NCBI GenBank assembly: GCA_964016885.1
Contig: OZ024740.1
Location: forward strand, 7,874,001 to 7,938,000
From: Eledone cirrhosa
Lineage: Eukaryota
Reading direction: 5' to 3'
Length of the DNA: 64,000 bases
Below, piece after piece: positions 16,990 through 64,000 of this stretch (within the stretch, counting starts at the first letter, position 1; each line of letters starts with the position of its first letter). The notes beneath the pieces were generated by a model. It saw only the letters and a list, made by a program, of their open reading frames with translations. It had not been told where the DNA came from and searched no databases. Position numbers and translations under genes: made by a program.

Positions 16990-19734
16990 TGACATACCTA
17001 TCGAAACTGACATACCAATCGAATCTGACATACCAATAGAAACTGATATACTAATCGAAACTGACACACCATTAGAAACTGACATACTAATCGAAACTGA
17101 TATATCAATCGAAACTAATATACCAATAGAAACTGACATACCAATCGAAACTGACATACCAATCGAAACTGATATACTAATCGAAACTGACATACCATTA
17201 GAAACTGACATACTAATCGAAACTGATATATCAATCGAAACTGATATACCAATCGAAACTGATATACCAATAGAAATTGACATACCAATCGAAACTGACA
17301 TACCAATCGAAACTGATATACCAATCAAAACTGATATACCAATAGAAACTAACATACCAATAGAAACTGACATACCAATAGAAACTGACATACCAATCGG
17401 AACTGATATACCAATCGAAACTGACATACCAATCGAAACTGACATACTAATCGAAACTGATATAACAATCAAAACTGACATACCAATAGAAACTGATATA
17501 CCAATAGAAACTGATATACTAATCGAAACTGACACACCAATCGAAACTGATATACCAATCGAAACTGACATACCAATCGAAACTGATATACCAATCGAAA
17601 CTGACATACCAATAGAAACTGAGATACCAATGGTAACTGATATACTAATCAAAGCTGACTTACCAATAGAAACTAACATACCAATTGAAACTGATATACA
17701 AATAGAAACTGACATACCAATAGAAACTGATATACCAATAGAAACTGACATAACAATTGAAACTGATATACATATAGAAACTGATATACTAATCGAAACA
17801 GACATACCATTTGAAACTGATATACCAATAGAAACTGACATACCAATCGAAACTGACATACCAATAGAAACTGATATACTAATCGAAACTGATATACCAA
17901 TAGTAACTAACATACCAATCGTAACTGATATACCAATCGAAATTGACATACCAATCGAAACTGACACACCAATCGAAACTGACATACCAATAGAAACTGA
18001 TATACCAATAGAAACTGACATACCAATCGAAACTGATATAACAATCGAAACTGATATACTAATCGAAACTGATATACCAATCGAAACTGACATACCAATC
18101 GAAACTGACATACCAATAGAAACTGATATATTAATCGAAACTGACATACCATTAGAAACTGACATACTAATCGAAACTGATATATCAATCGAAACTGATA
18201 TACCAATTGAAACTGATATACCAATCGAAACTGACATACAAATCGAAACTGACAATCCAACAGAAACTGATATAGCAATAGAAACTGTTATACCAATCAA
18301 AACTGACATACCAATCGAAACTGATATACCTATCGAAACTGATATACCAATCGAAACTGACATACCAATAGAAACTGACATACTAATCGAAACTGATATA
18401 CCAATCCAAACTGACATACCAATAGAAACTGATATAGCAATAGAAACTGATATACCAATCGAAACTGATATACCAATCAAAACTGATATACCAATAGAAT
18501 CTGACATACCAATCGAAACTGACATACCAATAGAAACTGATATACTAATCGCAACTGACATACCAATGGAAACTGATATACCAATCGAAACTGACATACC
18601 AATCAAAACTGACATACCAATCCAAACTGACATACCAATCAAAACTGATATACCAATCGACACTGACATAACAATCGAAACTGACATACCAATCGAGGAC
18701 TAACATACCTATAGAAACTTACATACCAATAGAAACTGATATACTAATCGAAACTGATATACCAATAGTAACTAACATGCCAATCGTAACTGATCTACCA
18801 AGAGAAACTGTCATACCAATCGAAACAGATATACCAATCGAAACTGATATACCAATAGAAACTGACATACTAATCGAAACTGATATACCAATCGAAATTG
18901 ACATACCAATCGAAACTGACATACCAATCGAAACTGACATACCAATAGAAACTGATATCCCAATAGAAACTGACATACCAATAGAAACTGATATACCAAT
19001 CGAAACTGATATACCAATAGAAACTGACATACCAATCGAAACTGACATACCAATCGAAACTGATATACCAATCAAAACTGATATACCAATAGAAACTGAC
19101 ATACCAATAGAAACTGACATACCAATAGAAACTGACATACCAATCGAAACTGATATACCAATCGAAACTGATATACCAATAGAAACTGACATACCAATCG
19201 AAACTGATATAAAAATCGAAACTGATATACTAATCGAAACTGATATACCAATCGAAACTGACATACCAATCGAAACTGACATACCAATAGAAACTGATAT
19301 ACTAATCGAAACTGACATACCATTAGAAACTGACATACTAATCGAAACTGATATATCAATCGAAACTGATATACCAATAGAAATTGACATGCCAATCGAA
19401 ACTGACATTCCAATCGAAACTGACATACCAATAGTAACTGATATAATAATCGAAACTGACATACCAATAGAAACTGACATACCAATCGAAACTGATATAC
19501 CAATAGAAACTGACATACCAATCGAAACTGATTATCCAACAGAAACTGATATATACCAATCGAAACTGATATACCAATCGAAACTGACATACCAATAGAA
19601 ACTGAAATACTAATCCAAACTGATATAACAATCAAAACTGACATACAAATAGAAACTGTTATAGCAATAGAAACTGACATACCAATAGAAACTGACATAC
19701 CAATAGAAGCTGATATACCAATAGAAACTGACAT
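16990..19734 (-). repeat. Same 18-bp satellite in inverted orientation
   Basis: Plus strand reads GAAACTGA[C/T]ATACCAAT[C/A] throughout. Confidence 0.98.
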
Positions 19735-20062
19735 CATCATCATCATCATCATCAACGTTTAACGTCCGTGTTCCATGCTTGCATGGGTTTGGACGGGGGT
19801 AGTCCCACTTGAGGCAAGAGTGATTTTCTTGCTCGCATAGGACTGTCTGGCAGGTTTTCTACAGTTGGATGCCCTTCCTAACACCAACCACATTTACAGT
19901 GTGGGTCTGGGAGGTTTTTACCGTGTTGCCTACACGGCCACATTACAGCGTGGACTGTGTGTTTTTTTGTCGTGACGCCTACACGATCTCATTTGTTTCG
20001 GCCTGGATGTTGTGGGACCAACATAACTTTACATTGGAAGGGGCGGTGGGGATGGGGTGGTG
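19732..20062 (-). mobile_element. RTE subfamily A distal 3' UTR plus (GAT)n tail
   Basis: Reverse complement of the 3' UTR seen at about 27855-28190 and 60765-61100; (CAT)n at 19732-19753. Confidence 0.95.
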
Positions 20063-20499
20063 ATTGGTATATCAGTTTCGATTAGTATGTCAGTTTCTAT
20101 TGGTATATCAGTTTCGATGGGTATGTCAGTTTCGATTGGTATGTGAGTTTCTATTGGTATATCAGTTTCGATGGGTATGTCAGTTTCTATTGGTATGTCA
20201 GATTCGATTGATATATCAGTTTCGATTAGTATGTCAGTTTCTATTGGTATGTCAGTTTCGATTGGTATGTCAGTTTCTATTGGTATATCAGTTTCGAATG
20301 GTATGTCAGTTTCTATTGGTATATCAGTTTCTATTGGTATGTCTGTTTCGATTAGTATATCAGTTTCTATAAGTATATCAGTTTCAATTGTTATGTCAGT
20401 TTCTATTGGTATATCAGTTTCTATTGGTATGTCAGTTTCGATTTGTATATCAGTTACAATTGGTATGTTAGTTTCTATTGGTAAGTCAGCTTCGATTAG
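20063..20499 (+). repeat. 18-bp satellite
   Basis: 18-bp periodicity; variant order matches about 33445-33843. Confidence 0.97.
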
Positions 20500-22515
20500 G
20501 TAGATGAAGCAGTCAAGGCCAAGAGACAGGCATGGAAAGAATGGAAGAACGGGGGGAGCAGGGTACATTACATAGCTAAGAGGGAAGCAGAGGATAGAAA
20601 ATTCAAGCATGTTTTACAACGTGAGGACCAGAAACAGGAGGTATTCAAGATTGCGAGGCAGTGTGTCAGAGATAGTTGTGATGTCATTGGAGAGAAGTGT
20701 ATCCGGAATGATAAAGGTGAGCTTGCCCTCACAAGTGCTGAGAAGAAAGATGCATGGAAGAGTCATTATGATAGATTACTAAATGAGGAGAATGCATGGG
20801 AAGAAGAGACCCTACCCCACGTAGACCCTATAGAGGGACCAGCAGTACAAGTCAGCGGCAGCGTAGTAAGTAAGGCAATCAGAGATATGAAGATAGGGAA
20901 GGCAACCGGTCCATCGGGTATAGCTGCCGAGATGCTGAAGGCATCTGGGTCTGTAGGTCACACTATAACCACACGTATCGTTAACCAGGTAATACTAGAG
21001 GGGGCCATACCAAAAGATTGGTGCAGTAGCATCATTGTCAACTGCTACAAAGGTAAAGGCGATGCACTAGATAGAGGAAACTATAGAGGTATAAAGTTGA
21101 TGGACCAGGTCATGAAAGTAACAGAAAGAGTTATAGCACAGCTGATTAGGGACCGGGTGAATATAGACGAGATGCAATTTGGGTTTGTACCAGGGAAAGG
21201 CACCACTGATGCCCTCTTCCTTGTGAGGCAATTACAGGAAAAGTACCTAGTTAAAAGTAAGCCACTCTACTTGGCATTTGTCGACCTTGAGAAAGCCTTT
21301 GACAGAGTTCCACGTGCAGTAATCTGGTGGGCTCTTAGAAAACTAGGAGTAGATGAATGGCTTGTGAAAGCGGTACAAGCCATGTATAGGGGAGCAGTCA
21401 GCAAAGTTAGGATTGGCAATGAGTATAGCGAGGAATTTAGCGTACAGGTTGGGGTCCACCAGGGCTCTGTTCTTAGCCCTCTCCTGTTCATCATAGTCCT
21501 GCAGGCAATAACGGAGGAGTTTAAGACCGGATGCCCATGGGAACTCCTGTATGCTGATGACCTCGCACTCATAGCTGAATCTATGGTAGAACTAGAGAAT
21601 AAATTCCAAACCTGGAAGCAGGGACTAGAGAGAAAGGGCCTCAAAGTCAACATGACAAAGACTAAGGTCCTTGTAAGTAGACGAGAAAACAGAAGCCAGA
21701 TCCCCTCAGGGAAATGGCCTTGCTCAGTATGTAGGAAAGGTGTAGGTAGGAACTCCATTCTCTGCCCCAAATGCAAACAATGGGTACACAAGAGATGTAG
21801 CGGGATCTCAGGAAGCTTAATTAAGAATGTAGGATTCACATGCAGCAGCTGTGCTGAAACAGCAAGCAGCAAACAGCCACAGGAAACAAGTACCACCAAT
21901 CTCTGGGAGGGCCCTGTAGAAACAGTAGACAGCTTCTGCTACCTAGGTGACCGAATTAGCAACGGAGGTGGGTGCTCAGAAAGTACAATAACTAGGGTAA
22001 GAACGGGATGGAAGAAGTTTAGGGAACTACTACCACTGCTAGCTGCAAAAGGCTTCTCCCTCAGAATGAAAGGCAGACTGTATGATGCGTGTATCCGAAC
22101 AGCGATGTTGCATGGTAGTGAGACCTGGGCGCTGAAGGTGGAAGACTTACGTAGATTAGAGAGAAACGAAGCCTGCATGCTCCGATGGATGTGTAACAGT
22201 AATATACGTGAACGACAAAGCATAAAGGAATTGAGAGAGAGACTGAGCATAAGAGGAATCAAATGCTGCGTGCAGGAGAGGCGGTTACGCTGGTATGGAC
22301 ATGTGATGCGTATGAAGGATGACAGCTGCATAAAAAGGTGCAGAGCACTAGAAGTTGATGGAAACCGCGGAGTGGGGAGACCCAAGATGACTTGGGATGA
22401 GGTGATAAAAGCCGACCTTACCCAACTAGACCTCTCAAAGTCAATGACACACGACCGTGACTTCTGGCGTCACGCAGTAATACAGGGTACCCGACCTCCC
22501 ATGGGTACATGCTGA
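20500..22515 (+). CDS. Partial RTE-B ORF: reverse transcriptase with embedded PHD finger (no endonuclease)
   Basis: Frame is open from the junction at 20500 through track ORF 20887-22515. Motifs NYRGIKL, AFVDLEKAFD, QGSVLSP, LYADD, YLG, RRLRWYGHVMRM, GRPKMTW. Confidence 0.9.
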   Translation, partial: VDEAVKAKRQAWKEWKNGGSRVHYIAKREAEDRKFKHVLQREDQKQEVFKIARQCVRDSCDVIGEKCIRNDKGELALTSAEKKDAWKSHYDRLLNEENAWEEETLPHVDPIEGPAVQVSGSVVSKAIRDMKIGKATGPSGIAAEMLKASGSVGHTITTRIVNQVILEGAIPKDWCSSIIVNCYKGKGDALDRGNYRGIKLMDQVMKVTERVIAQLIRDRVNIDEMQFGFVPGKGTTDALFLVRQLQEKYLVKSKPLYLAFVDLEKAFDRVPRAVIWWALRKLGVDEWLVKAVQAMYRGAVSKVRIGNEYSEEFSVQVGVHQGSVLSPLLFIIVLQAITEEFKTGCPWELLYADDLALIAESMVELENKFQTWKQGLERKGLKVNMTKTKVLVSRRENRSQIPSGKWPCSVCRKGVGRNSILCPKCKQWVHKRCSGISGSLIKNVGFTCSSCAETASSKQPQETSTTNLWEGPVETVDSFCYLGDRISNGGGCSESTITRVRTGWKKFRELLPLLAAKGFSLRMKGRLYDACIRTAMLHGSETWALKVEDLRRLERNEACMLRWMCNSNIRERQSIKELRERLSIRGIKCCVQERRLRWYGHVMRMKDDSCIKRCRALEVDGNRGVGRPKMTWDEVIKADLTQLDLSKSMTHDRDFWRHAVIQGTRPPMGTC

Positions 22516-22820
22516 AGCATATAAACAATATGCCCCCCCCCCCCCACCGCAAGGTGGCCGTGGAGGTGCCACGGCAAAAAAGCACCCAGCCCACACTGTA
22601 AAGTGGACGTGTAGGCGCCACGAAAAAGCACCCAGCACTCACTGTAAATGAGGTTGGTGTTAGGAAGGGCATCCAGCTGTAGAAATCAAGCCAGATCAGT
22701 TCCTGTATGAGCAAGGCATGGTCAGCCGACCAGACACTGCCCACAACAGGACAACCCGTCTAACCCATGCTAGCGTGGAAGAACGGACGTAAAACGGTGA
22801 TGATGATGATGATGATGATG
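20500..22820 (+). mobile_element. RTE-clade LINE subfamily B, 5'-truncated, with complete 3' UTR and (GAT)n tail
   Basis: RT ORF, 3' UTR 22516-22797 sharing the GGTTGGTGTTAGGAAGGGCATCCA block with subfamily A, and a (TGA)n tail to 22820. Confidence 0.96.
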
Positions 22821-23790
22821 TCAGTTTAGATTGGTATATCAGTTTCGATTGGTATGTCAGTTTCTATTGGTATATCAGTTTCTATTGGTATGTCAGTTTC
22901 TATTGGTATGTCAGTTTCTATTGGTATGTCAGTTTCTATAAGTATATCAGTTTCAATTGTTATGTCAGTTTCTATTGGTATGTCAGTTTCGATTGGTATA
23001 TCAGTTTGGATTAGTATTTCAGTTTCGATTGGTATGTCAGTTTCGATTGGTATATCAGTTTCGATAGGTATATCAGTTTCGATTGGTATATCAGTTTCTG
23101 TTGGATTGTCAGTTTCGATTGGTATGTCAGTTTCTATTGGTATATCAGTTTCGATTGGTATGTCAGTTTCTATTGGTATGTCAGTTTCGATTATGATATC
23201 AGTTACTATTGGTATGTCAGTTTCGATTGGAATGTCAGTTTCGATTGGTATGTCAGTTTATATCGGTATATCTGTTTCGATTGGTATGTCAGTTGCGATT
23301 AGTATATCAGTTTCGATTGATATATCAGTTTCGATTAGTATGTCAGTTTCTAATGGTATGTCAGTTTCGATTAGTATATCAGTTTCGATTGGTATGTCAG
23401 TTTCGATTGGCATGTCAGTTTCTATTGGTATATTAGTTTCGATTGATATATCAGTTTCGATTAGTATGTCAGTTTCTAATGGTATGTCAGTTTCGATTAG
23501 TATGTCAGTTTCGATTGGTATGTCAGTTTTGCTTGGTATATCAGTTTCGATTAGTATATCAGTTTCGATTGTTATATCAGTTTCGATTGGTATGTCAGTT
23601 TCTATTGGTATATCAGTTTCGATTGGTATATCAGTTTCGATTGGTATGTCAGTTTCTATTTGTATGTCAGTTTCTATTGGTATGTCAGTTTCTATTGGTA
23701 TATCAGTTTTGATTGGTATATCAGTTTCTATTGGTATGTCAGTTTCGATTGGTATGTCAGTTTAGATTGGTATATCAGTTTCGATTAGTA
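22818..23790 (+). repeat. 18-bp satellite
   Basis: 18-bp periodicity; variant order paralogous to about 33863-34850. Confidence 0.97.
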
Positions 23791-24051: not shown

Positions 24052-24093
<42 letters not shown>

Positions 24094-24622
24094 GATAGGA
24101 ATTCACTTCGCCAAATTTCATTGCTTGCTGTCTCTACCCACGATATTCATGTAACGTAATGTACGGATTTCATTTCTCTCCCTCCACAAATCTTAATTCT
24201 AGCGTATTTTCAAAAGAATCCATATTTCGTATCAAGTCCAAATAGCCAATCTATCGCTAAAACAAACTACATTTTCTGTTTCTATTAATTGTTAAATACG
24301 AAAGTTTTTGGGCGTATTCAACAGAACAAATTTTGTATTTTTGTTAATCACTTGTTAAATGCAAGGACCCCATTCAATCATTACCTTCTTGCTAGCTACC
24401 CAACACCCCTCCCTCCCACCCCACGCACCACCATTGCTATTACGTGGACCAATCATAAAACAGAGCCCCCACGCATCACCAGTATTATTACGCGGACCAA
24501 TCAGAAACCAGAGGCCTATACTATCGCTTGCCTGGTTGCCTTTCGATATATGATGGATGGATGGACTGCGGAATCCTGGAGAGTGGAGGTGAGAGAGAGA
24601 AAAATCTGGACGCTCAGCGACA
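23790..24622 (+). other. Non-satellite sequence upstream of the RTE-A ORF (A19 tract, local direct repeats, (CT)n(TA)n); contains the probable RTE 5' UTR, boundary unresolved
   Basis: A-tract 23790-23808; about 48-bp repeat at 23809 and 23975; about 42-bp repeat at 23855 and 24357; (CT)n(TA)n 24052-24093. Confidence 0.6.
24437..24520 (+). promoter_or_regulatory. Candidate internal promoter of RTE-A: duplicated motif with two CCAAT boxes
   Basis: ATTACGTGGACCAATCATAAAACAGAG and ATTACGCGGACCAATCAGAAACCAGAG, CCAAT at 24449 and 24497, about 120-170 bp upstream of ATG 24623. Confidence 0.3.
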
Positions 24623-27600
24623 ATGCCAAAGATAAAGACAAATTCACCTCTTGGACGAGAATGCGAGCACTCCTCACTGTTTCGACCGCGGACGGCTAAC
24701 ATAACCCCATCGCCCCCCGCCCCCCACCGCCCCAACCCCCAAACGCAATCCAAAACTTCAGAGTTGGTACCATAAATGTAGGCACCCTAAAGGGTCGCGC
24801 TAACGAGGTTGTAGAAATGCTTGAACATAAGGAGGTCGATGTTTGTTGTATTCAAGAGACCAGGTGGAGGGGTGGGTCTGCTAGGTTCATTGAGGGTAAA
24901 AAACGATGTTATAAGCTTTTCTGGGTGGGAAACGACGATGGGCTGGGTGGAGTAGGAATCATGGTAGCAGAAAAGTGGGCAGATAAGATAATAGACGTAA
25001 ATAGAGTGAACGACAGAATAATTAAAATACGACTTGTCCTCAATAGAACTACGGTGACAGTAATATCTGCGTACGCACCCCAATCCGGACTGCCCGGCAC
25101 TATAAAAGACAGATTCTATGAGACACTGATGCTAACTACCTCCCAAATATCCGACAGTGACTATATAATTATCGCAGGCGACCTAAATGGTCACGTTGGA
25201 CAACATTGTGACGGCTACGACGAAATCCATGGAGGCTATGGGTTTGGTACTAGAAATGAGGAAGGCTCCAGAATCCTGGAATTCTGTGATGCAAATAACC
25301 TAACTATCTGTAACACTAACTTCAAAAAACGTGACAATCACCTGATCACCTATAGATCCGGGGAACACACAAGCCAGGTAGATTATATCCTTACCAGAAG
25401 ACGTGACAGAGTGTCTGTTGTAAACACTAAATCCCTCCCCCATGAAGAATGCACCTCCCAACATAGACTGATAATTAGCGACCTCATAGTCAGGACGAGA
25501 CGTACTCGACAGCAGAAGAGGACTATCCTCAGGAGAAAAATATGGAAGCTAAAGGACCCCACAGCCAGGAATAAATTTCAAAGCATATTACTTGATGCTT
25601 TCGACAGTAAGGAAGAACATTTAGAGTCGGACAATATAGAGGGAGAGTGGGAATTTCTGAAAGCAAACCTGCTGTTGGCGACAGACGAAGTCTGTGGCTG
25701 GAGCAGGCCTGTAGGCAGGAGGAGAGTAACATGGTGGTGGAACAGTAAGGTGGAGGGGTCAATTAAGGCCAAAAAGCAGGCTTGGAAAGTATGGCGGGAT
25801 GGGGGAAGTAGAGAGGACTATCAAGTGGCCAGGAGGGAAGCCAGGAGACAAGTGTACTTAGCAAGAAGGGAAGCTGAGGAAAGAAAGTTCAAGCATGTTC
25901 TACAACGCGATGACCAAAAACGTGAGGTGTTCAGGATTGCTAGGCAATGCGTCAAGGAAAACCGTGATATTGTCGGGGAGAAGTGTGTACTAAACGACGA
26001 TGGCACACTTGCCATCACCGACGCTGATAAGAAGGTAGCTTGGAAGTGTCACTATGAAAGGCTACTAAATGAGGAGAATAATTGGGAGAAAGGCAGTCTC
26101 CCCCATATCGACCCAATAGAGGGACCAGCAGTGTTAGTCGAGGGGAGTATAATAAGTAAGGCAATCAAGGATATGAAGACGGGTAAGGCGGCTGGGCCTT
26201 CGGAAATAGTTGCTGAGATGCTGAAGGCATCTGGCACGGTGGGACACACCATGGTCACCCGCATAGTTAACCAAGTCGTACAGAATGGGGTTGTTCCGAA
26301 GGACTGGCATAGCAGCATCATCGTTAACTGTTATAAGGGTAAAGGAGACGCCCTAGATAGGAGTAACTATAGAGGCATTAAAGTAATCGACCAGGTCATG
26401 AAGGTCACGGAAAAAGTAATAGCGCAACTAATCAGAGAGAGAATTGACCTAGATGAAATGCAGTTCGGGTTTGTGTCAGGCAAAAGTACCACAGACGCTC
26501 TTTTCATAGTACGACAACTACAGGAGAAGTACCTAGCTAAAGGTAAACCCCTCTACTTAGCTTTTGTCGACTTGGAGAAAGCCTTCGACAGAGTCCCCCG
26601 CTCCATTATCTGGTGGGCTCTTAGAAAACTAGGCGTTGACGAATGGCTTGTGAGGGCTATACAAGCCATGTATAAAGAAACAGTCAGCAAGGTTAGAATT
26701 AACAACGAATATAGTGAAGAGTTTAGCGTAAAAGTTGGCGTCCATCAGGGCTCTGTTCTCAGCCCACTACTATTTATTATTGCCCTTCAGGCTATAACAG
26801 AGGAGTTCAAGACAGGCTGCCCATGGGAACTCCTATACGCAGACGACCTGACACTCATAGCGGAATCAATGGCCGAGCTAGAGAAGAAATTCCAAACATG
26901 GAAGCACGGCCTAGAGTCAAAAGGACTTAAAATTAACCTGGCTAAGACCAAAGTACTAGTTTGTAGGAAAGAAAACAAGGCGGCGGTCCCTTCTGGGAAA
27001 TGGTCGTGCTCGGTGTGTAGGAAAGGCGTAGGTAGAAACTCCATTTTATGTCCTAAATGCAAAGTATGGGTGCATAAAAGATGTGGTGGGATCACAGGTA
27101 AGCTAACTAAGAACATAGATTTTACATGTGGCCGGTGCTCTGGTGCAATAAGTAGCAGCAAGTGCCCACAAACTACTAGCTCTTTCAATTGCGCAGAGGG
27201 TTCTATAGAAATAGTGGACAGCTTCCGTTACCTGGGCGATAAAATCAGCAGTGGGGGAGGGTGCTCTGAAAGTACTGTAGCTAGAGTCAGAACTGGTTGG
27301 AAAAAGTTCAGAGAGCTTATACCACTATTAGCTGCTAAAGGGTTCTCACTAAAAATGAAAGGCAGGTTGTACGATGCCTGCATACGAACAGCAATGCTGC
27401 ATGGCAGTGAGACCTGGGCATTGTGTGCAGAGGATATACGCAGACTAGAGAGGAACGAAGCTTGCATGCTCCGCTGGATGTGTAACAGTAATATACGTGA
27501 ACGGCAAAGCATAAACGAACTAAGGAAAAAATTAGAGATAAGAGGGATCAGATGTTGTTTACTCGAGAGAAGGCTACGTTGGTATGGACACGTGATGCGC

Positions 27601-27792
27601 ATGAAAGTCGATAGCTGTATAACAAAGTGCAGGGCAATAAAGATAGACGGTAGTCACGGAATAGGCAGACCTAGAAAAACCTGGGACGAGCTGATAAACT
27701 CCGACATCACACACTTACACCTCTCCAAGACAATGTCACTGGACCGAGACCTTTGGCGGTACTCAGTAACAGAGAAGACCCGCCTTACCTAA
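24623..27792 (+). CDS. RTE-A polyprotein: AP endonuclease, RT, PHD finger; one -1 frameshift near 24736-24740 (uninterrupted part 24817-27792, 991 aa)
   Basis: APE motifs GTINV, CIQET, SAYAPQ, AGDLNGHVG, SQVDYIL, SQHRL; RT motifs DLEKAFD, QGSVLSP, YADD, YLG. The N-terminus MPKIKTNSPLGRECEH aligns in frame with the 57.6-kb copy. Confidence 0.9.
27007..27138 (+). other. C4HC3 PHD-type zinc finger coding segment inside the RT
   Basis: CSVC-x10-CPKC-x4-H-x2-C-x14-CGRC; all eight ligands are conserved in all five RT copies. Confidence 0.85.
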
Positions 27793-28190
27793 ATATATAG
27801 TAAAACCTACTCCAGCCAGTAGGCATCTCTAACAAAATACACCCCGTCCCACCACCACCACCCCCACCCGATCCACACCACCCCGTTCTATGTAAAGTTA
27901 TGCTGGTGCCGCGCCATCGAGGCCGAAACAAATGAGATCGTGTAGGTGTCACGACAAAAAAACACACAGTCCACGCTGTAATGTGGCCGTGTAGGCAACA
28001 CGGTAAAAACCTCCCAGACCCACACTGTAAATGTGGTTGGTGTTAGGAAGGGCATCCAACTGTAGAAAACCTGCCAGACAGTCCTATGCGAGCAAGACAA
28101 TCACTCTTGCCTCAAGTGGGACTACCCCCGTCCAAACCCATGCAAGCGTGGAACACGGACGTTAAACGTTGATGATGATGATGATGATGA

Positions 28191-28525: not shown

Positions 28526-28684
28526 GCAAAACAGAAAAATACCAAAATTCCCCTCCCCACCATCCACCCACCTTGATTTCCCCACCCCCACAAAACAATC
28601 AACAGAAATAAATAAATTTTTTGGAGCTGGGGGTGTGGTTAAGAAAAAGATTTCTATTTTTGAAATATGATAACATGTCTCTTA

Positions 28685-28989: not shown

Positions 28990-28990
<1 letters not shown>

Positions 28991-29904: not shown

Positions 29905-31400
29905 AATCTGGTGGGCTCTTAGAAAACTAGGAGTAGATGAATGGCTTGTGAAAGCGGTACAAGCCATGTATAGGGGAGCAGTCAGCAAAGTTAGGATTGG
30001 CAATGAGTATAGCGAGGAATTTAGCGTACAGGTTGGGGTCCACCAGGGCTCTGTTCTTAGCCCTCTCCTGTTCATCATAGTCCTGCAGGCAATAACGGAG
30101 GAGTTTATGACCGGATGCCCATGGGAACTCCTGTATGCTGATGACCTCGCACTCATAGCTGAATCTATGGTAGAACTAGAGAATAAATTCCAAACCTGGA
30201 AGCAGGGACTAGAGAGAAAGGGCCTCAAAGTCAACATGACAAAGACTAAGGTCCTTATAAGTAGACGAGAAAACAGAACGCAGATCCCCTCAGGGAAATG
30301 GCCTTGCTCAGTATGTAGGAAAGGTGTAGGTAGGAACTCCATTCTTTGCCCCAAATGCAAACAATGGGTACACAAGAGATGTAGCGGGATCTCAGGAAGC
30401 TTAATTAAGAATGTAGGATTCACATGCAGCAGCTGTGCTGAAACAGCAAGCAATCAGCCACAGGAAACAAGTACCACCAATCTCTGGGAGGGCCCTGTAG
30501 AAACAGTAGACAGCTTCTGCTACCTAGGTGACCGAATTAGCAACGGAGGTGGGTGCTCAGAAAGTACAATAACTAGGGTAAGAACGGGATGGAAGAAGTT
30601 TAGGGAACTACTACCACTGCTAGCTGCAAAAGGCTTCTCCCTCAGAATGAAAGGCAGACTGTATGATGCGTGTATCCGAACAGCGATGTTGCATGGTAGT
30701 GAGACCTGGGCGCTGAAGGTGGAAGACTTACGTAGATTAGAGAGAAACGAAGCCTGCATGCTCCGATGGATGTGTAACAGTAATATACGTGAACGACAAA
30801 GCATAAATGAATTGAGAGAGAGACTGAGCATAAGAGGAATCAAATGCTGCGTGCAGGAGAGGCGGTTACGCTGGTATGGACATGTGATGCGTATGAAGGA
30901 TGACAGCTGCATAAAAAGGTGCAGAGCACTAGAAGTTGATGGAAACCGCGGAGTGGGGAGACCCAAGATGACTTGGGATGAGGTGATAAAAGCCGACCTT
31001 ACCCAACTACACCTCTCAAAGTCAATTACACACGACCGTGACTTCTGGCGTCACGCAGTAATACAGGGTACCCGACCTCCCATGGGTACATGCTGAAGCA
31101 TATAAACAATATGCCCCCACCCCCCACCGCAAGGTGGTCGTGGAGGTGCCACGGCAAAAAAGCACCCAGCCCACACTGTAAAGTGGACGTGTAGGCGCCA
31201 CGAAAAAGCACCCAGCACTCACTGTAAATGAGGTTGGTGTTAGGAAGGGCATCCAGCTGTAGAAATCAAGCCAGATCAGTTCCTGTATGAGCAAGGCATG
31301 GTCAGCCGACCAGACACTGCCCACAACAGGACAACCCGTCTAACCCATGCCAGCGTGGAAGAACGGACGTAAAACGGTGATGATGATGATGATGATGATG

Positions 31401-31438: not shown

Positions 31439-31548
31439 GTGTATATATATGTATATATATATATATATATCTATATATATATATATATATATATATCTAT
31501 ACATATATATCTATATATATATCTATATATATATATATATATATATAT
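31401..31548 (+). repeat. (TA)n microsatellite, imperfect
   Basis: Read directly from the sequence. Confidence 0.95.
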
Positions 31549-53200: not shown

Positions 53201-56200
53201 TGCTATTGGTATGTCAGTTTCGATTGGTATATGAGTTTCTGTTGGTATGTCTGTTTCTATTGGTATATCAGCTTCGATTGGTATATCAGTTTAGATTAGT
53301 ATCTCAGTTTCTATTGGTATGTCAGTTTCGGTCAGTATATCAGTTTCTAGTGGTATGTCAGTTTTGATTGCTATGTCAGTTTCAATTGGTATATCAGTTT
53401 CGATTGGTATATCACTTTCGATTGGTATATCAGTTTCTATTGGTATATCAGTTTCGATTGGTATGTCAGATTTGATTGGTATATCAGTTTCGATTGGTAT
53501 ATCAGTTTCTAATGGTATGTCAGTTTCGATTATTATATCAGTTACTATTGGTATCTCACTTTCGATTGGTATGTCAGTTTCGATTGGTACATCAGTTTCG
53601 ATTGGTATGTCAGTTTCTATTGGTATATCAGTTTCTATTTGTATGTCTGTTTCAATAGGTATGTCAGTTTCTATTGGTATATCAGTTTCGATTGGTATGT
53701 TAGTTTCTATTGGTATGTCAGTTTCGATTATTATATCAGTTACTATTGGTATGTCAGTTTCGATTGTTATGTCAGTTTCGATTAGTATATCAGTTTCTAT
53801 TGGTACGTCAGTTTCGATAAGTATGTTAGTCCTCGATTTGTATGTCAGTTTCTATTGGTATATCAGTTTCGATGATTATGTCAGTTTCGGTTGGTATGTC
53901 AGTTTCTATTGGTATATCAGTTTCGAATGGTATGTCTGTTTCGATTAGTATATCAGTTTCTATTAGTATATCAGTTTCAATTGTTATGTCAGTTTCTATT
54001 GGTATATCAGTTTCTATTGGTATGTCAGTTTCTATTTGCATATCAGTTACAATTGGTATGTTAGTTTCTATTGGTAAGTAAGCTTCGATTAGTATATCAG
54101 TTTCGATTGGTATGTCAGTTTCGATTGGTATATCAGTTTCGATTGGTATGTCAGTTTCTATTGGTATATCAGTTTCTATTGGTATGTCAGTTTCTATTGG
54201 TATGTCAGTTTCTATTGCTATATCAGTTTCTATTAGTATGTCAGTTTCGATAGGTATGTCACTTCCTATTGGTATATCAGTTTCGATTGGTATGTCAGTT
54301 TCTATTGTTATGTCAGTTTCGATTATTTATATCAATTACTATTGGTATGTCAGTTTCGATTGGTATATCAGTTTCTATTGGTATGACAGTTTCGATTGGT
54401 ATATCAGTTTCGATTGGTATGTCAGTTTGAATTGGTATGTCAGTTCCGATTGGTATGTCAGTTTCGATTGGTATGTCAGTTTCGATTGGTATATCAGTTT
54501 CGATTGGTATATCAGCTTCGATTGGTATATCACTTTCGATTGGTATGTCAGTTTCTATTGGTATGTCAGTTTCTATTGGTATGTCAGTTTCTATTGGTAT
54601 ATCAGTTTTGATTGGTATATCAGTTTCGATTGGTATGTCAGCTTCGATTGGTATGTCAGTTTCTATTGGTATGTCAGTTTTGATTATTATATCACTAACT
54701 ATTGGTATGTCAGTTTCGATTGTTATTACAGTTTCAATTGGTATGTCAGTTTCGATTAGTATATCAGTTTCGATTGGTATATCAGTTTCGATTGGTATAT
54801 CAGTTTCGATTGGTATGTCAGTTTCGATTGGTATGTCAGTTTGGATTGGTATGTCAATTTCGATTGTTATATCAGTTTCGATTGGTATATCAGTTTCGAT
54901 TGGTATATCAGTTTCTATTGGTATGTCAGTTTCTATTGGTATGTCAGTTTCTATTGGTATGTCAGTTTCTATTGGTATATCAGCTTCGATTGTTATATCA
55001 GTTTTGTTTAGTATGTCAGTTTCTATTGGTATGTCAGTTTCGATTAGTACATCAGTTTCTATTGGTATATCAGTTTAGATTGCTATGACAGTTTTGATTG
55101 GTATGTTAGTTTCGATTGGTATATCAGTTTCGATTGGTATGTCAGTTTCAATTGATATATCAGTTTCTATTGGTATGTCAGTTTCGAATAGTAAGTCAGT
55201 TTCTATTGGTATGTCAGTTTCGATTATTATATCAGTTGTTATTGGTATGTCAGTTTCGATTGGTATGTCAGTTTCGATTGGTATATCAGTTTCTGTTGGT
55301 ATGTCAGTTTCTATTGGTATATCAGCTTCGATTGGTATATCAGTTTAGATTAGTATGTCAGTTTCTATTGGTATGTCAGTTTCGGTCAGTATATCAGTTT
55401 CTATAGGTATGTCAGTTTCTATTGGTATGTCAGTTTCTATTGGTATATTAGTTTTGATTGGTATATCAGTTTCGATTGGTATGTCAGTTTCTATTGGTAT
55501 GTCAGTTTCGATTATTATATCATTAACTATTGGTATGTCAGTTTCGATTGTTATGTCAGTTTCGATTGATATATCAGTTTCTATTGGTATGACAGTTCCG
55601 ATTGGAATATCAGTTTCGATTTGTATGTCAGTTTGGATTGGTATGTCAGTTCCGATTGGTATGTCATTTTCGATTGGTATATCAGTTTCGATTGGTATAT
55701 CAGTTTCGATTGGTATATCAGTTTCGATTGGTATGTCAGTTTCGATTGGTATGTCAGTTTGTATTGGTATGTCAATTTCGATTGGTATATCAGTTTCGAT
55801 TGGTATATCAGTTTCGATTGGTATGTCAGTTTCTATTGATATATCAGTTTCTATTGGTATGTCAGTTTCGTAAGGTATGTCAGTTTTTATTGGTATATCA
55901 GTTTCGAATAGTATGTCAGTTTCTATTGGTATGTCAGTTTCGATTATTATATCAGTTACTATTGGTATGTCAGTTTCGATTGGTATGTCAGTTTCGATTG
56001 GTATATCAGTTTCTGTTGGTATGTCAGTTTCTATTGGTATATCAGTTTCGACTGGTATATCACTTTCGATTGGTATGTCAGTTTCGATTGGTATATCAGT
56101 TTCGATTGGTATGTCAGTTTCTATTGGTATATCAGTTTCGACTGGTATGTCAGCTTTGATTGGTATATCAGTTTCGATTGGTATATCAGTTTCTAATGGT

Positions 56201-57576
56201 ATGTCAGTTTCGATTATTATATCAGTTACTATTGGTATCTCAGTTTCGATCGGTACGTCAGTTTCGATTGGTACATCAGTTTCGATTGGTATGTCAGTTT
56301 CTATTGGTATATCAGTTTCTATTGGTATGTCTGTTTCAATAGGTATGTCTGTTTCTATTGGTATATCAGTTTCGATTGGTATGTTAGTTTCTATTGGTAT
56401 GTCAGTTTCGATTATTATATCAGTTACTATTGGTATGTCAGTTTCAATTGTTATGTCAGTTTCGATTAGTATATCAGTTTCTATTGGTACGTCAGTTTCG
56501 ATACGTATGTTAGTGCTCGATTTGTATGTCAGTTTCTATTGGTATATCAGTTTCGATGGTTATGTCAGTTTCGATTGGTATGTCAGTTTCTATTGGTATA
56601 TCAGTTTCGAATGGTATGTCTGTTTCGATTAGTATATCAGTTTCTATTAGTATATCAGTTTCAATTGTTATGTCAGTTTCTATTGGTATATCAGTTTCTA
56701 TTGGTGTGTCAGTTTCTATTTGTATATCAGTTACAATTGGTATGTTAGTTTCTATTGGTAAGTCAGCTTCGATTAGTATATCAGTTTCGATTGGTATGTC
56801 AGTTTCGATTGATATATCAGTTTCGATTGGTATGTCAATTTCTATTGGTATATCAGTTTCTATTGGTATGTCAGTTTCTATTGGTATGTCAGTTTCTATT
56901 GCTATATCAGTTTCTATTAGTATTTCAGTTTCGATAGGTATGTCACTTCCTATTGGTATATCAGTTTCGCTTTGTATGTCAGTTTCAATTGGTATGTCAG
57001 TTTCGATTATTTATATCAGTTACTATTGGTATGTCAGTTTCGATTGTTATGTCAGTTTCGATTGGTATATAAGTTTCTATTGGTATGACAGTTTCGATTG
57101 GTATATCAGTTTCGACTGTTATATCAGTTTTGTTTAGTATGTCAGTTTCTATTGGTATGTCAGTTTCGATTAGTATATCTGTTTCTATTGGTATGTCAAT
57201 TTAGATTGCTATGACAGTTTTGATTGGTATATTAGTTTCGATTGGTATATCAGTTTCGATTGGTATGTCAGTTTCTATTGATATATCAGTTTCTATTGGT
57301 ATGTCAGTTTCGATAGGTATGTCAGTTTTTATTGGTATATCAGTTTCGAATAGTATGTCAGTTTCTATTGGTATGTCAGTTTCGATTATTATATCAGTTA
57401 CTATTGGTATGTCAGTTTCGATTGGTATGTCAGTTTCGATTGGTATATCAGTTTCTGTTGGTATGTCAGTTTCTATTGGTATATCAGCTTCGATTGGTAT
57501 ATCAGTTTAGATTAGTATGTCAGTTTCTATTGGTATGTCAGTTTCGGTCAGTATATCAGTTTCTATAGGTATGTCA
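32243..57576 (+). repeat. 18-bp satellite array (block 2), more diverged, with patchwork higher-order repeats of about 2.4-2.7 kb
   Basis: Recurrence offsets 2414 (33899/36313), 2720 (47862/50582), 2666 (48979/51645) and 4593 (41522/46115). Confidence 0.98.
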
Positions 57577-60500
57577 AATTCACCTCGTGGACGAGAATGC
57601 GAGCACTCTTCTTTGTTTCGCCCGCGGATGGCTAACATAACCCCATCTCCCCCCGCCCCCCACCAACCCCACCCTCCAAACGCGATCCAAAACTTCAGAG
57701 TTGGTACCATAAATGTAGGCACCCTAAACGGTCGCGCTAACGATGTTGTAGAAATGCTTGAACGTAAGGAGGTCGATGTTTGTTGTATTCAAGAGACCAG
57801 GTGGAGGGGTGGGTCTGCTAGATTCATTGAGGGTAAAAAACGATGTTATAAGCTTTTCTGGGTGGGAAACGACGATGGGCTGGGTGGAGTAGGAATCATG
57901 GTAGCAGAAAAGTGGGCAGATAAGATAATAGACGTAAATAGAGTGAACGACAGAATAATTAAAATACGACTTGTCCTCAATAGAACTACGGTGACAGTAA
58001 TATCTGCGTACGCACCCCAATCCGGACTGCCCGGCACTATAAAAGACAGATTCTATGAGACACTGATGCTAACTACCTCCCAAATATCCGACAGTGACTA
58101 TATAATTATCGCAGGCGACCTAAATGGTCACGTTGGACAACATTGTGACGGCTACGACGAAATCCATGGAGGCTATGGGTTTGGTACTAGAAATGAGGAA
58201 GGCTCCAGAATCCTGGAATTCTGTGATGCAAATAACCTAACTATCTGTAACACTAACTTCAAAAAACGTGACAATCACCTGATCACCTATAGATCCGGGG
58301 AACACACAAGCCAGGTAGATTATATCCTTACCAGAAGACGTGACAGAGTGTCTGTTGTAAACACTAAATCCCTCCCCCATGAAGAATGCACCTCCCAACA
58401 TAGACTGATAATTAGCGACCTCATAGTCAGGACGAGACGTACTCGACAGCAGAAGAGGACTATCCTCAGGAGAAAAATATGGAAGCTAAAGGACCCCACA
58501 GCCAGGAATAAATTTCAAAGCATATTACTTGATGCTTTCGACAGTAAGGAAGAACATTTAGAGTCGGACAATATAGAGGGAGAGTGGGAATTTCTGAAAG
58601 CAAACCTGCTGTTGGCGACAGACGAAGTCTGTGGCTGGAGCAGGCCTGTAGGCAGGAGGAGAGTAACATGGTGGTGGAACAGTAAGGTGGAGGGGTCAAT
58701 TAAGGCCAAAAAGCAGGCTTGGAAAGTATGGCGGGATGGGGGAAGTAGAGAGGACTATCAAGTGGCCAGGAGGGAAGCCAGGAGACAAGTGTACTTAGCA
58801 AGAAGGGAAGCTGAGGAAAGAAAGTTCAAGCATGTTCTACAACGCGATGACCAAAAACGTGAGGTGTTCAGGATTGCTAGGCAATGCGTCAAGGAAAACC
58901 GTGATATTGTCGGGGAGAAGTGTGTACTAAACGACGATGGCACACTTGCCATCACCGACGCTGATAAGAAGGTAGCTTGGAAGTGTCACTATGAAAGGCT
59001 ACTAAATGAGGAGAATAAATGGGAGAAAGACAGTCTCCCCCATGTCGACCCAATAGAGGGACCAGCAGTGTTAGTCGAGGGGAGTATAATAAGTAAGGCA
59101 ATCAAGGATATGAAGACGGGTAAGGCGGCTGGGCCTTCGGAAATAGTTGCTGAGATGCTGAAGGCATCTGGCACGGTGGGACACACCATGGTCACCTGCA
59201 TAGTTAACCAAGTCGTACAGAATGGGGTTGTTCCGAAGGACTGGCATAGCAGCATCATCGTTAACTGTTATAAGGGTAAAGGAGACGCCCTAGATAGGAG
59301 TAACTATAGAGGCATTAAAGTAATCGACCAGGTCATGAAGGTCACGGAAAAAGTAATAGCGCAACTAATCAGAGAGAGAATTGACCTAGATGAAATGCAG
59401 TTCGGGTTTGTGTCAGGCAAAAGTACCACAGACGCTCTTTTCATAGTACGACAACTACAGGAGAAGTTCCTAGCTAAAGGTAAACCCCTCTACTTAGCTT
59501 TTGTCGACTTGGAGAAAGCCTTCGACAGAGTCCCCCGCTCCATTATCTGGTGGGCTCTTAGAAAACTAGGCGTTGACGAATGGCTTGTGAGGGCTATACA
59601 AGCCATGTATAAAGAAACAGTCAGCAAGGTTAGAATTAACAACGAATATAGTGAAGAGTTTAGCGTAAAAGTTGGCGTCCATCAGGGCTCTGTTCTCAGC
59701 CCCCTACTATTTATTATTGCCCTTCACGCTATAACAGAAAAGTTCAAGACAGGCTGCCCATGGGAACACCTATACGCAGACGACCTGACACTCATAGCGG
59801 AATCAATGGCCGAGCTAGAGAAGAAATTCCAAACATGGAAGCACGGCCTAGAGTCAAAAGGACTTAAAATTAACCTGGCTAAGACCAAAGTTCTAGTTTG
59901 TAGGAAAGAAAACAAGGCGGCGGTCCCTTCTGGGAAATGGTCGTGCTCGTTGTGTAGGAAAGGCGTAGGTAGAAACTCCATTTTATGTCCTAAATGCAAA
60001 GTATGGGTGCATAAAAGATGTAGTGGGATCACAGGTAAGCTAACTAAGAACATAGATTTTACATGTGGCCGGTGTTCTGGTGCAATAAGTAGCAGCAAGT
60101 GCCCACAAAATACTAGCTCTTTCAATTGCGCAGAGGGTTCTATAGAAATAGTGGACAGCTTCCGTTACCTGGGCGATAAAATCAGTAGTGGGGGAGGGTG
60201 CTCTGAAAGTACTGTAGCTAGAGTCAGAACTGGTTGGAAAAAGTTCAGAGAGCTTATACCACTATTAGCTGCTAAAGGGTTCTCCCTAAAAATGAAAGGC
60301 AGGTTGTACGATGCCTGCATACGAACAGCAATGTTGCATGGCAGTGAGACCTGGGCATTGTGTGCAGAGGATATACGCAGACTAGAGAGGAACGAAGCTT
60401 GCATGCTTCGCTGGATGTGTAACAGTAATATACGTGAACGGCAAAGCATAAACGAACTAAGGAAAAAATTAGAGATAAGAGGGATCAGATGTTGTTTACT

Positions 60501-60741
60501 CGAGAGAAGGCTACGTTGGTATGGACACGTGATGCGCATGAAAGTCGATAGCTGTATAACAAAGTGCAGGGCAATAAAGATAGACGGTAGCCACGGAATA
60601 GGCAGACCTAGAAAGACCTGGGATGAGCTGATAAACTCCGACCTCACACACTTACACCTCTCCAAGACAATGTCACTGGACCGAGACCTTTGGCGGTACT
60701 CAGTAACAGAGAAGACCCGCCTTGCCAGTAGGCATCTCTAA
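57571..60741 (+). CDS. Uninterrupted RTE-A APE-RT-PHD ORF (1056 aa from the satellite-derived ATG at 57571; first element-encoded ATG at 57628)
   Basis: Track ORF 57517-60741; APE and RT motifs present including YADD; a 28-bp deletion removes the normal stop and gives the C-terminus RLASRHL. Confidence 0.92.
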   Translation: MSNSPRGRECEHSSLFRPRMANITPSPPAPHQPHPPNAIQNFRVGTINVGTLNGRANDVVEMLERKEVDVCCIQETRWRGGSARFIEGKKRCYKLFWVGNDDGLGGVGIMVAEKWADKIIDVNRVNDRIIKIRLVLNRTTVTVISAYAPQSGLPGTIKDRFYETLMLTTSQISDSDYIIIAGDLNGHVGQHCDGYDEIHGGYGFGTRNEEGSRILEFCDANNLTICNTNFKKRDNHLITYRSGEHTSQVDYILTRRRDRVSVVNTKSLPHEECTSQHRLIISDLIVRTRRTRQQKRTILRRKIWKLKDPTARNKFQSILLDAFDSKEEHLESDNIEGEWEFLKANLLLATDEVCGWSRPVGRRRVTWWWNSKVEGSIKAKKQAWKVWRDGGSREDYQVARREARRQVYLARREAEERKFKHVLQRDDQKREVFRIARQCVKENRDIVGEKCVLNDDGTLAITDADKKVAWKCHYERLLNEENKWEKDSLPHVDPIEGPAVLVEGSIISKAIKDMKTGKAAGPSEIVAEMLKASGTVGHTMVTCIVNQVVQNGVVPKDWHSSIIVNCYKGKGDALDRSNYRGIKVIDQVMKVTEKVIAQLIRERIDLDEMQFGFVSGKSTTDALFIVRQLQEKFLAKGKPLYLAFVDLEKAFDRVPRSIIWWALRKLGVDEWLVRAIQAMYKETVSKVRINNEYSEEFSVKVGVHQGSVLSPLLFIIALHAITEKFKTGCPWEHLYADDLTLIAESMAELEKKFQTWKHGLESKGLKINLAKTKVLVCRKENKAAVPSGKWSCSLCRKGVGRNSILCPKCKVWVHKRCSGITGKLTKNIDFTCGRCSGAISSSKCPQNTSSFNCAEGSIEIVDSFRYLGDKISSGGGCSESTVARVRTGWKKFRELIPLLAAKGFSLKMKGRLYDACIRTAMLHGSETWALCAEDIRRLERNEACMLRWMCNSNIRERQSINELRKKLEIRGIRCCLLERRLRWYGHVMRMKVDSCITKCRAIKIDGSHGIGRPRKTWDELINSDLTHLHLSKTMSLDRDLWRYSVTEKTRLASRHL

Positions 60742-61100
60742 CAAAATACACACCGTCCCGCCACCACCCCCACCCATCCACACCACCCCGTCCTATGTAA
60801 AGTTATGTTGGTGCCGCGCCATCCAGGCCGAAACAAATGAGATTGTGTAGGTGTCACGACAAAAAAACACACAGTCCACGCTGTAATGTGGCCGTGTAGG
60901 CAACACGGTAAAAACCTCCCAGACCCACACTGTAAATGTGGTTGGTGTTAGGAAGGGCATCCAACTGTAGAAAACCTGCCAGACAGTCCTATGCGAGCAA
61001 GACAATCACTCTTGCCTCAAGTGGGACTACGCCCGTCCAAACCCATGCAAGCGTGGAACACGGACGTTAAACGTTGATGATGATGATGATGATGATGATG
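57575..61100 (+). mobile_element. RTE subfamily A, nearly full coding length, lacking the 5' UTR, flanked by ATGTCA
   Basis: Begins CAAATTCACC (equivalent to 24639); tail 61075-61100; ATGTCA at 57571 and 61098; empty paralogous site at 55409. Confidence 0.96.
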
Positions 61101-64000
61101 TCAGTTTCTATTGGTATGTCAGTTTCTATTGGTATATCAGTTTTGATTGGTATATCAGTTTCGATTGGTATGTCAGTTTCTATTGTTATGTCAGTTTCGA
61201 TTATTATATCATTAACTATTGGTATGTCAATGTCGATTGTTATGTCAGTTTCGATTGGTATATCAGTTTCTATTGGTATGACAGTTCCGATTGGTATATC
61301 AGTTTCGATTGGTATGTCAGTTTGGATTGGTATGTCAGTTCCGATTGGTATGTCAGTCTCAATTGGTATATCAGTTTCAATTGGTATATCAGTTTCGATT
61401 AGTATATCAGTTTCGATTGTTACATCAGTTTCGATTGGTATGTCAGTTTTTATTGGTATATCAGTTTCTATTGGTATGTCAGTTTCGATTGGTATGTCAG
61501 TTTCGATTGGTATGTCAATTTCGATTGATATATCAGTTTCGATTAGTATGTCAGTTTCTATTGGTATATCAGTTTCGATTGGTATATCAGTTTCGATTGG
61601 TATGTCAGTTTCGATTGGTATATCAGTTTCGATTGGTATGTCAGTTTCGATTAGTATATCAGTTTCTATTGGTATGTTAGTTTTGATTGGTATGTCAGAT
61701 TCTATTGGTATATCAGTTTCGATTGGTATATCAGTTTCGATTGGTATATGAGTTTCTATTGGTATATCAGTTTCGATTGGAATGTCAGTTTCGATTGGTA
61801 TATCAGTTTTGATTAGTATGTCAGTTTCTATTGATACATCAGTTTCGAATGGTATATCAGTTTCGATTGGTATGTCAGTTTCGATTGGTATATCAGTTTC
61901 TATTGGTATATCAGTTTCTATTGGTATGTCAGGTTTGATTTGTATATCTGTTTCGATTGGTATATCAGTTCTATTGGTATGTCAGTTTCGATTATTATAT
62001 CAGTTACTATTGGTATCTCAGTTTTGATTGGTATGTCAGTTTCGATTGGTATATCAGTTTCGATTGGTATGTCAGTTTCTATTGGTATATCAGTTTCTAT
62101 TGGTATGTCAGTTTCTATTGGTATGTCAGTTTCTATTGGTATATCAGTTTTGATTGGTATATCAGTTTCGATTGGTATATCAGCTTCGATTGGTATATCA
62201 CTTTCGATTGGTATGTCAGTTTCTATTGGTATGTCAGTTTCGATTGGTATGTCAGTTTCTATTGGTATATCAGTTTGGATTGATATATCAGTTTCGATTA
62301 GTATGTCAGTTTGTAATGGTATGCCAGTTTTGATTAGTATATCAGTTTCTATTGGTATGTCAGTTTCGATTGGTATGTCAGTTTCGATTGGTATGTCAGT
62401 TTCGATTGGTATGTCTGTTTCTATTGGTAGATCAGTTACGATTGGTATGTTAGTCCTCGATTTCTATGTCAGTTTCTATTGGTATATCAGTTTCGATGGG
62501 TATGTCAGTTTCTATTGGTATATCAGTTTCTATTGGTATGTCAGTTTCGATTATTATATCAGTTACTATTGGTATCTCAGTTTCTATTGGTATGTCAGTT
62601 TCGATTGGTATATCAGTTTCGATTGGTATATCAGTTTCAATTGGTATATCAGTTCCTATTGGTATGTCAGTTTTGATTGGTATATCAGTTTCGATTGTTA
62701 CGTCAGTTTCGATTGGTATATCAGTTTCGATAGGTATATCAGTTTCGATTGGTATATCAGTTTCTATTGGTATATCAGTTTCTATTGGTATGTCAGTTTT
62801 GATTGGTATATCAGTTTCTATTAGTATGTCACTTTTGATTGGTATGTCAGTTTCGTTTGGTATATCAGTTTCGATAGGTATATCAGTTTCGATTGGTATG
62901 TCAGTTTTGATTGGTATAACAGTTTCGATTGCTATATCAGTTTCTGTTGGATTGTCAGTTTCGATTATTATATCAGTTACTATTGGTATGTCAGTTTCGA
63001 TTGGAATGTCAGTTTCGATTGGTATGTCAGTTTCTATTGGTATATCTGTTTTTATTGGTATGTCAGTTGCGATTAGTATATCAGTTTCTATAGATATGTA
63101 AGTTTCTATTGGTATATCAGTTTTGATTGGTATATCAGTTTCGATTGGTATGTCAGTTTCGATTGGTATGTCAGTTTCTATTGGTATATCAGTTTCGATT
63201 GATATATCAGTTTCGATTAGTATGTCAGTTTCTAATGGTATGTCAGTTTCGATTAGTATATCAGTTTCTATTGGTATGTCAGTTTCTATTGGTATGTCAG
63301 TTTCTATTGGTATATCAGTTTTGATTGGTATATCAGTTTCGATTGGTATGTCAGTTTCGATTGGTATGTCAGTTTCTATTGGTATATCAGTTTCGATTCG
63401 TATATCAGTTTCGATTGATATATCAGTTTCAATTAGTATGTCAGTTTCTAATGGTATGTCCGTTTCGATTAGTATATCAGTTTCTATTGGTATGTCAGTT
63501 TCGATTGGTATGTCAGTTTCGATTGGTATATCAGTTTCGATTAGTATATCAGTTTCGATTGTTATATCAGTTTCGATTGGTATGTCAGTTTCTATTGGTA
63601 TATCAGTTTCTATTGGTATGTCAGTTTTGATTGGTATGTCAGTTTCGATTGGTATATCAGTTTCGATTGGTATGTCAGTTTCGATTAGTATATCAGTTTC
63701 TATTGGTATGTTAGTTTTGATTGGTATGTCAGATTCTATTGGTATATCAGTTTCGATTGGTATATCAGTTTCGATTGGTATATGAGTTTCTATTGGTATA
63801 TCAGTTTCTACTGGTATGTCAGTTTTGATTGGTATATCAGTTTCGATTAGTATGTCAGTTTCGATTGGTATGTCAGTTTCGATTGGTATATCAGTTTCGA
63901 TAGGTATACCAGTTTCAATCAGTATGTCAGTTTTGATTGGTATAACAGTTTCTATTGCTATATCAGTTTCTATTGGATTGTCAGTTTCTATTGGTATGTC
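61098..64000 (+). repeat. 18-bp satellite array (block 3), continues beyond the window
   Basis: 18-bp periodicity; start is paralogous to about 55409-55700. Confidence 0.98.

Follow-up and report, generated by a model that had tools for sequence, protein, structure and literature searches.

We analysed a 64,000-nucleotide stretch of the Eledone cirrhosa genome (the window; G000:C1:7874001-7938000, genome size 3.0 Gb), in which copies of a long interspersed nuclear element (LINE) lie within a satellite whose 18-bp repeat unit is TCAGTTTCKATTGGTATR. The element carries an apurinic/apyrimidinic endonuclease (APE), a reverse transcriptase (RT) and a PHD finger in a single open reading frame (ORF), and it ends in a (GAT)n tail. 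A preliminary description of the window had noted that these tails meet the satellite at one phase and strand, and had proposed an RTE retrotransposon that homes to the satellite or strongly prefers it. The phase preference is real, but homing is not borne out. Most probably, this is a genome-wide LINE with about 30,000 tails whose satellite phase results from a general target preference.

The shared 3′ end and tail have 29,670 matches in the genome. With identical patterns, 514 tails end in AT/RTC, 63 of them in the satellite array, and 310 end in AT/ACY, 11 of them in the array (here and below, a slash marks the junction). With about four others counted by hand, the array holds approximately 78 tails, or 0.26% of the total, and both LINE subfamilies, A and B, are dispersed through the genome. 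Tail density in the array is 3.3-fold above its share of genome length, or 2.7-fold after duplicates are collapsed, and only 1.2-1.4-fold higher than over the contig's initial 4.36 Mb; these values are approximate, as the patterns used for numerator and denominator differ slightly. In random 200-kb samples, element content at 90% identity or more is 589 bp for the array and 753 bp for the genome. No satellite-located tail was present among the first 30 loci inspected, and there were two among 100 listed copies (of 482) of a tail variant. The main sink is instead the (AT)n microsatellite. A short interspersed nuclear element (SINE) with the same 3′ end shows no enrichment in the array: of its 21,256 exact 5′ matches, 11 fall there, whereas a hand calculation from array length predicts about 17. 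The preliminary description had named use of both satellite strands and lack of enrichment as evidence that would count against it. Both strands are indeed used; enrichment exists, yet it is only about 3-fold.

Searches of the array that placed no restriction on phase returned 52 sense and 16 antisense rows. Left out were one off-array row per strand, three antisense rows that had been counted twice and a sense row with no tail. The remaining 50 sense and 12 antisense junctions collapse to 51 independent events: 41 sense at AT/RTCA (GGT-AT/RTCA, the main phase), eight antisense at AT/ACYA, and two sense at K-AT/TGG or K-AT/AGG. The 41:8 ratio of sense to antisense (binomial for 41/49, p=2e-6) is strongly skewed, and the phase bias is not due to chance. 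Because of a gap limit, the sense search might overlook far phases where tails are long; a search free of this limit placed 22 of 23 unique junctions at the main phase among 100 listed rows of 230. A wider set, which adds loci found by phase-restricted patterns and was collapsed at 95% flank identity, reduces 99 tails to 79 clusters. Of the 77 flanked by satellite, 61 are at the main phase, 11 are antisense and five are other, although two of these five represent the main phase with variant tails. Most array insertions are independent, as their 5′ ends differ. The sense and antisense sites share one AT dinucleotide of the quasi-palindrome GT-AT-RT / AY-AT-AC. Among events flanked by satellite on the left, target-site duplications (TSDs) of 4-6 bp are seen in 25 of 54 sense and seven of ten antisense cases, when lengths are counted from the shared AT, modulo 18, with any 5′ microhomology included.

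Within the window, the four junctions originally noted are as claimed: GATG/TCAGTTTCT (19732, minus strand), GATG/TCAGTTTAG (22820), GAT/ATCAGTTTCG (32244) and GATG/TCAGTTTCT (61100). Two other tails end outside the satellite, one in an ACT-rich repeat (28188) and one in (AT)n (31402). The four junctions are mutually distinct, but they do not represent four separate insertions in the window, because the one at 19732 is a copy of that at G000:C1:7871830. Direct comparison reveals that the two elements are 99-100% identical and that 400 nucleotides of their right flanks are 97-100% identical. This junction belongs to an inverted block (window 15022-20062) that reads as the 3′ end of an element, satellite and, beyond it, that element's 5′ part. 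The block is a circular permutation of G000:C1:7869511-7871830 (L095), located 2 kb upstream of the window and 99-100% identical, and both breakpoints lie near one place in the 3′ untranslated region (UTR).

The chance estimate of (1/36)^3 that had been attached to these junctions uses the wrong null, as four of four has a probability of 0.42 at the array-wide frequency of 41/51. A restriction to one strand likewise fails beyond the window, given the 12 unique antisense junctions and a further search in which ten of ten rows were antisense. It had also been suggested that equally good or better matches to the tail go unused. This holds for the antisense register TGAT/ATACC, which is absent among the 12 antisense junctions, but not for the same-strand GAT site, which has been used twice independently. 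The recognition of two subfamilies of an RTE-type LINE, with independent insertions and a strong phase preference, is supported. The data are also compatible with nicking of the bottom strand near CTGAYAT^ACC, at a position that the AT overlap leaves uncertain by 2 nucleotides.

The preference for this site has a counterpart throughout the genome. A total of 21,887 tails (74%) end in AT/RY, compared with 43% of genomic AT dinucleotides, and 8,971 of all tails (30%) have ATAYATAY next to them, in (AT)n runs. Alternating purine-pyrimidine flanks were found at 44 of 60 loci from the first-30 and tail-variant sets. To describe TSDs outside the array we used 206 background tails, and the 5′ end was mapped for 164 of them; loci L177-L276 in this set were picked for non-microsatellite flanks and are not random. 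Half of the mapped left flanks (82/164) end in an alternating purine-pyrimidine run, and an exact TSD of at least 5 nucleotides is present at 66 of the 164 insertions, and 49 of these TSDs (counted by eye) begin at the AT that the tail overlaps. Because left flanks end in such runs and TSDs start at AT, the AT runs are targets and not merely later growth, and expansion after insertion possibly contributes as well. The fixed phase in the satellite probably arises because the favoured site fits this general liking for AT-alternating DNA.

The favoured site also carries TTT at positions -11 to -9, followed by T/A (GGT/ATR), whereas the antisense site lacks TTT. RTE elements are described as having a Tn-TA signature, wherein the TSD starts at T/A about 10 nucleotides downstream of a T-tract (PMC6007223, PMC13295347), and the favoured satellite site matches this signature exactly, its TTT preceding T/A at that distance. 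Upstream of the SINE, counted on the strand that gives one count per copy, TTT outnumbers AAA by 749 to 520 (1.44) at gaps of 6-10, 1204 to 753 (1.60) at 11-15, 1062 to 847 (1.25) at 16-20 and 1002 to 838 (1.20) at 21-25. The difference between near and far gaps (odds ratio 1.25, z=4.6) is real but weak, in a measure that is blunted by AT runs and by the varying length of TSDs. The SINE itself is approximately 330-360 bp long, looks tRNA-like, has a 3′ region in common with subfamily B, and carries (GAT)n or (AAATG)n tails; examples include L140 (G000:C1:7239220-7239566), L410, L411, L417 and L418. All 11 array copies are in the sense orientation, and every 3′ junction that was inspected lies at the main satellite phase, once with an (AAATG)n tail. 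An attempt to define SINE TSDs yielded 16 full-length copies among the fetched loci, mostly within AT runs.

The element frame of 1030 amino acids matches the Pfam families Exo_endo_phos and RVT_1, and the PHD finger that follows the RT domain scores above the Pfam cut-off. There is no ORF1: the 600-nucleotide leader lacks any frame of 150 amino acids or longer, and its longest stop-free stretch is 136 codons. The two subfamilies are about 76% identical and are approximately 4.1 kb (A) and 3.85 kb (B) in length, and the tail places a short tandem repeat where poly(A) might otherwise be found. In the endonuclease, QH aligns with the DH of L1, and glutamine occupies the position of L1 D229 in 39 of 39 aligned proteins; in the frame at window positions 24700-27792 it lies in the sequence SQH within residues 250-258 (D229Q in L1 numbering). 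The adjacent beta-hairpin seems to be two residues shorter than in L1 by an eye count from T-x-x-S to the catalytic D, although the HMMER alignment placed no gap there. In the account of PMC6007223, plant RTEs alone are reported with D229Q, along with a hairpin shorter by two residues. The Eledone element is an animal RTE-type LINE with D229Q, a feature otherwise reported from plants. Its protein has 332 homologues at E<=1e-50, with 43-54% identity among the 120 listed, and the PHD-bearing RTE group looks widespread; neither these 120 nor the Atlas clusters are labelled by clade. Membership of the RTE clade is likely on the basis of anatomy and endonuclease features.

Elements of this class are known to insert by target-primed reverse transcription that starts at an APE nick (PMC6007223). 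For the Eledone LINE, we propose that the endonuclease prefers a TpA step in purine-pyrimidine-alternating DNA and would nick at or beside it. The freed 3′ AT could then prime reverse transcription by pairing to AU in the RNA tail, (GAU)n, with a second nick made perhaps 4-6 bp away. The TTT tract, which lies 9-11 bp upstream in the sense orientation only, might raise sense use about 5-fold, as in the RTE Tn-TA signature.

Several observations weigh against the proposal that a general preference explains the satellite junctions. An exact TSD of at least 5 nucleotides is lacking at 98 of the 164 mapped background insertions, and many background TSDs lie inside AT runs, where the start is ambiguous and an upstream T-tract is unreadable. 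The 1.25-fold T-tract signal across the genome comes from the SINE rather than the LINE and is insufficient alone for a 5:1 strand ratio or a 25-fold excess, and intact TTT at 24 of 25 used monomers compared with 90% expected provides too little power to discriminate. Per-site use of ATRTC is 6.2e-4 in the array and 2.5e-5 elsewhere (25-fold), and that of antisense ATACY is 1.2e-4 in the array and 2.2e-5 elsewhere (about 5-fold). The (AT)n register is used at 1.1e-4 per site, which places the satellite sense site about 5.6-fold higher. Background site densities derive from 200 kb, and duplicates were retained. An excess of about 25-fold per site at the satellite is left unaccounted for by general preference. 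Active steering to the satellite on top of TA-repeat seeking, by extended sequence read-out or by a PHD finger that reads heterochromatin, would explain this excess and would make the element an RTE part-way to repeat specificity, but we consider such steering unlikely.

A possible alternative, which we do not favour, is that the general motif preference is combined with a regional boost in a heterochromatic array, caused by chromatin tethering (possibly via the PHD finger), by a lack of purifying selection or by local duplication. The roughly 3-fold tail density, the 5-fold excess at an antisense site that has no T-tract, the presence of the PHD finger and the collapse of 99 tails to 79 clusters, which implicates duplication, all agree with such a boost. 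However, the array barely exceeds the first 4.36 Mb of its own contig, its element content resembles that of the genome, and the SINE falls short of its expected number there. A boost of this kind is compatible with general preference as an extra layer of a few fold. Selection of the site by tail microhomology alone at random nicks is very unlikely, even though AT is common to tail and target at nearly all junctions. The 3-bp match K-GAT/TGG accounts for two of 51 events, compared with 41 for a site offering 2-3 bp; monomers with ATG, which allow three pairs, are not favoured over those with ATA (33 versus 27, p=0.61); and the better antisense match TGAT/ATACC is found in none of 12 junctions. 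The same site is also occupied by a SINE copy whose tail is (AAATG)n.

A true satellite-homing RTE, comparable to SART/TRAS or Tx1-clade elements, is highly improbable. The phase preference and the per-site excess would suit it, but 99.7% of tails are outside the array, both subfamilies are dispersed, both satellite strands are used, and the satellite is apparently one array that is far too small as a sink. Homing is refuted as a property of the family, and could be rescued only if some hidden sub-lineage were restricted to the array. Amplification of the array, carrying along one or a few ancestral insertions, can scarcely be the explanation, despite 16 duplicate clusters that include window junction 19732, since 77 satellite-flanked clusters are left at 95% flank identity. 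These clusters differ in their 5′ truncation points and include both LINE subfamilies as well as a SINE, and such distinct 5′ ends and families refute this origin.

The satellite appears to form one 2.36-Mb array (G000:C1:7,229,893-~9,587,750). A satellite 25-mer has 31,553 matches in the genome, the first at C1:7,229,892, and their orientation (31,348 versus 205) reveals that the array is almost entirely in a single orientation. Twenty 10-kb samples spanning 7.27-9.55 Mb are 97% satellite. All satellite seems to be confined to this array because the scaled total of 2.11 Mb matches its span, with the first 100 places of the 25-mer listed. The array supplies about 100,000 copies of the 18-bp substrate and has received more than 70 independent insertions. 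Many local duplications are also evident inside it. Subfamily B copies at G000:C1:8646438 and 8723103 (L107, L109) have 200 of 200 right-flank bases in common and 5′ lengths of 3850 and 2358 bp, for which duplication followed by deletion, or conversion, are candidate readings. Another RT-encoding insert in the array (L372:6253-10000) is less than 90% identical to subfamilies A and B, and its 5′ end adjoins GGTATATAT.

The features of the window are listed in the table below. An 8.45-kb island without satellite (23790-32244) begins with poly(A) exactly at a satellite GT^A and finishes with an RTE tail, again at this step, and it may be one insertion with cargo. Near its end, a 112-bp segment of 3′ UTR (31763-32137) is present in 3.3 repeats of 99% identity, perhaps owing to template slippage in reverse transcription.

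Table. Satellite blocks and LINE copies in the window (window positions)
Feature	Position	Strand
Satellite array TCAGTTTCKATTGGTATR, part of the 2.36-Mb array	4..15021	+
5′ part of a 5′-truncated subfamily A copy without 3′ end; duplicate of the G000:C1:7871830 copy	15022..16988	-
Inverted satellite block	16989..19732	-
Subfamily A, 3′ 330 bp with (GAT)7 tail and main-phase junction; duplicate of G000:C1:7871830	19733..20062	-
Short satellite block	20062..20502	+
Subfamily B copy, 5′-truncated, with no clear TSD; RT and PHD frame 20500-22515; main-phase junction after tail 22799-22819	20500..22819	+
Satellite block; ends at GT^A (same step as insertion site), then poly(A) run	22820..23790	+
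Subfamily A copy, near full-length; APE, RT and PHD in a single long frame, 24700-27792; non-satellite repeat at end of tail	24095..28188	+
Subfamily B copy, 5′-truncated, within (AT)n run	29905..31402	+
Subfamily A 3′ fragment; 112-bp tandem triplication; tail meets satellite at main phase	31548..32244	+
Satellite array	32245..57576	+
Subfamily A copy; intact APE-RT-PHD frame; (GAT)8 tail; 6-bp TSD ATGTCA at main phase	57575..61099	+
Satellite array	61100..64000	+

These findings remove a candidate for a site-specific RTE and leave in its place a real phase bias with an ordinary cause and a modest leftover excess. They add a probable case of the RTE Tn-TA signature from an animal, in an element that carries the D229Q otherwise reported from plants. 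The array serves as a natural assay that reports target register, orientation bias and TSD length of an RTE at single-base resolution. Should the per-site excess prove to come from active targeting, it would illustrate how specificity for a repeat can arise within a clade regarded as non-specific.

Site-specific elements of the R1 (SART/TRAS) and Tx1 clades use an APE nick and tail-target pairing, occupy a fixed phase in a short repeat, and insert almost exclusively there. The Eledone LINE resembles them in its fixed phase in a short repeat and in its presumed APE nick and tail-target pairing, but it differs in that 99.7% of its tails are elsewhere and in the split of its 51 events into 41 sense, eight antisense and two at a second site. 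R1 and Tx1 are named in PMC6007223 as the only site-specific APE clades. RTE-2_OV, as described in PMC9115989, is likewise a single-ORF RTE of about 1,100 amino acids with endonuclease, RT and zinc finger, UTRs of about 600 nucleotides and a 3′ microsatellite, a likeness drawn by description only; unlike the Eledone element, it is described with a C2H2 finger and with a 3′ UTR that consists mostly of microsatellite.

Closer parallels are found among elements with generic target motifs. In our literature search there was no report of an RTE that homes to a satellite or prefers (AT)n, and published supplementary TSD tables may hold similar (AT)n-preferring families. In Cuscuta europaea, L1-CS LINEs cluster at fixed positions of the CUS-TR24 monomer, which holds a generic endonuclease motif, and the insertions then underwent duplications and inversions, according to PMC8091179. 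Fixed monomer positions and later duplications and inversions are seen here too, probably likewise through a generic target motif. However, L1-CS belongs to the L1 clade and has 91% of its copies associated with satellite (PMC8091179), compared with 0.26% for the Eledone LINE.

The RTE-clade LINEs and SINEs described with the Tn-TA signature include plant RTEs, Bov-B and the Sauria SINE (PMC6007223, PMC13295347). From these accounts, the Eledone LINE shares with them a single APE-RT ORF, a microsatellite tail, a partner SINE with the same 3′ end, dispersed copies, a TSD that starts at T/A about 10 nucleotides past TTT at the favoured site, and 3′ microhomology of 1-2 nucleotides. It departs from them in its strong accumulation in (AT)n, its weak genome-wide T-tract signal, and satellite TSDs of mostly 4-6 bp as opposed to their 7-15. 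It also has a PHD finger after RT, and an animal host for the otherwise 'plant-only' D229Q. In the endonuclease itself the likeness is to plant RTEs, with which the Eledone LINE has in common Q229 and, apparently, a hairpin shorter by two residues (PMC6007223).

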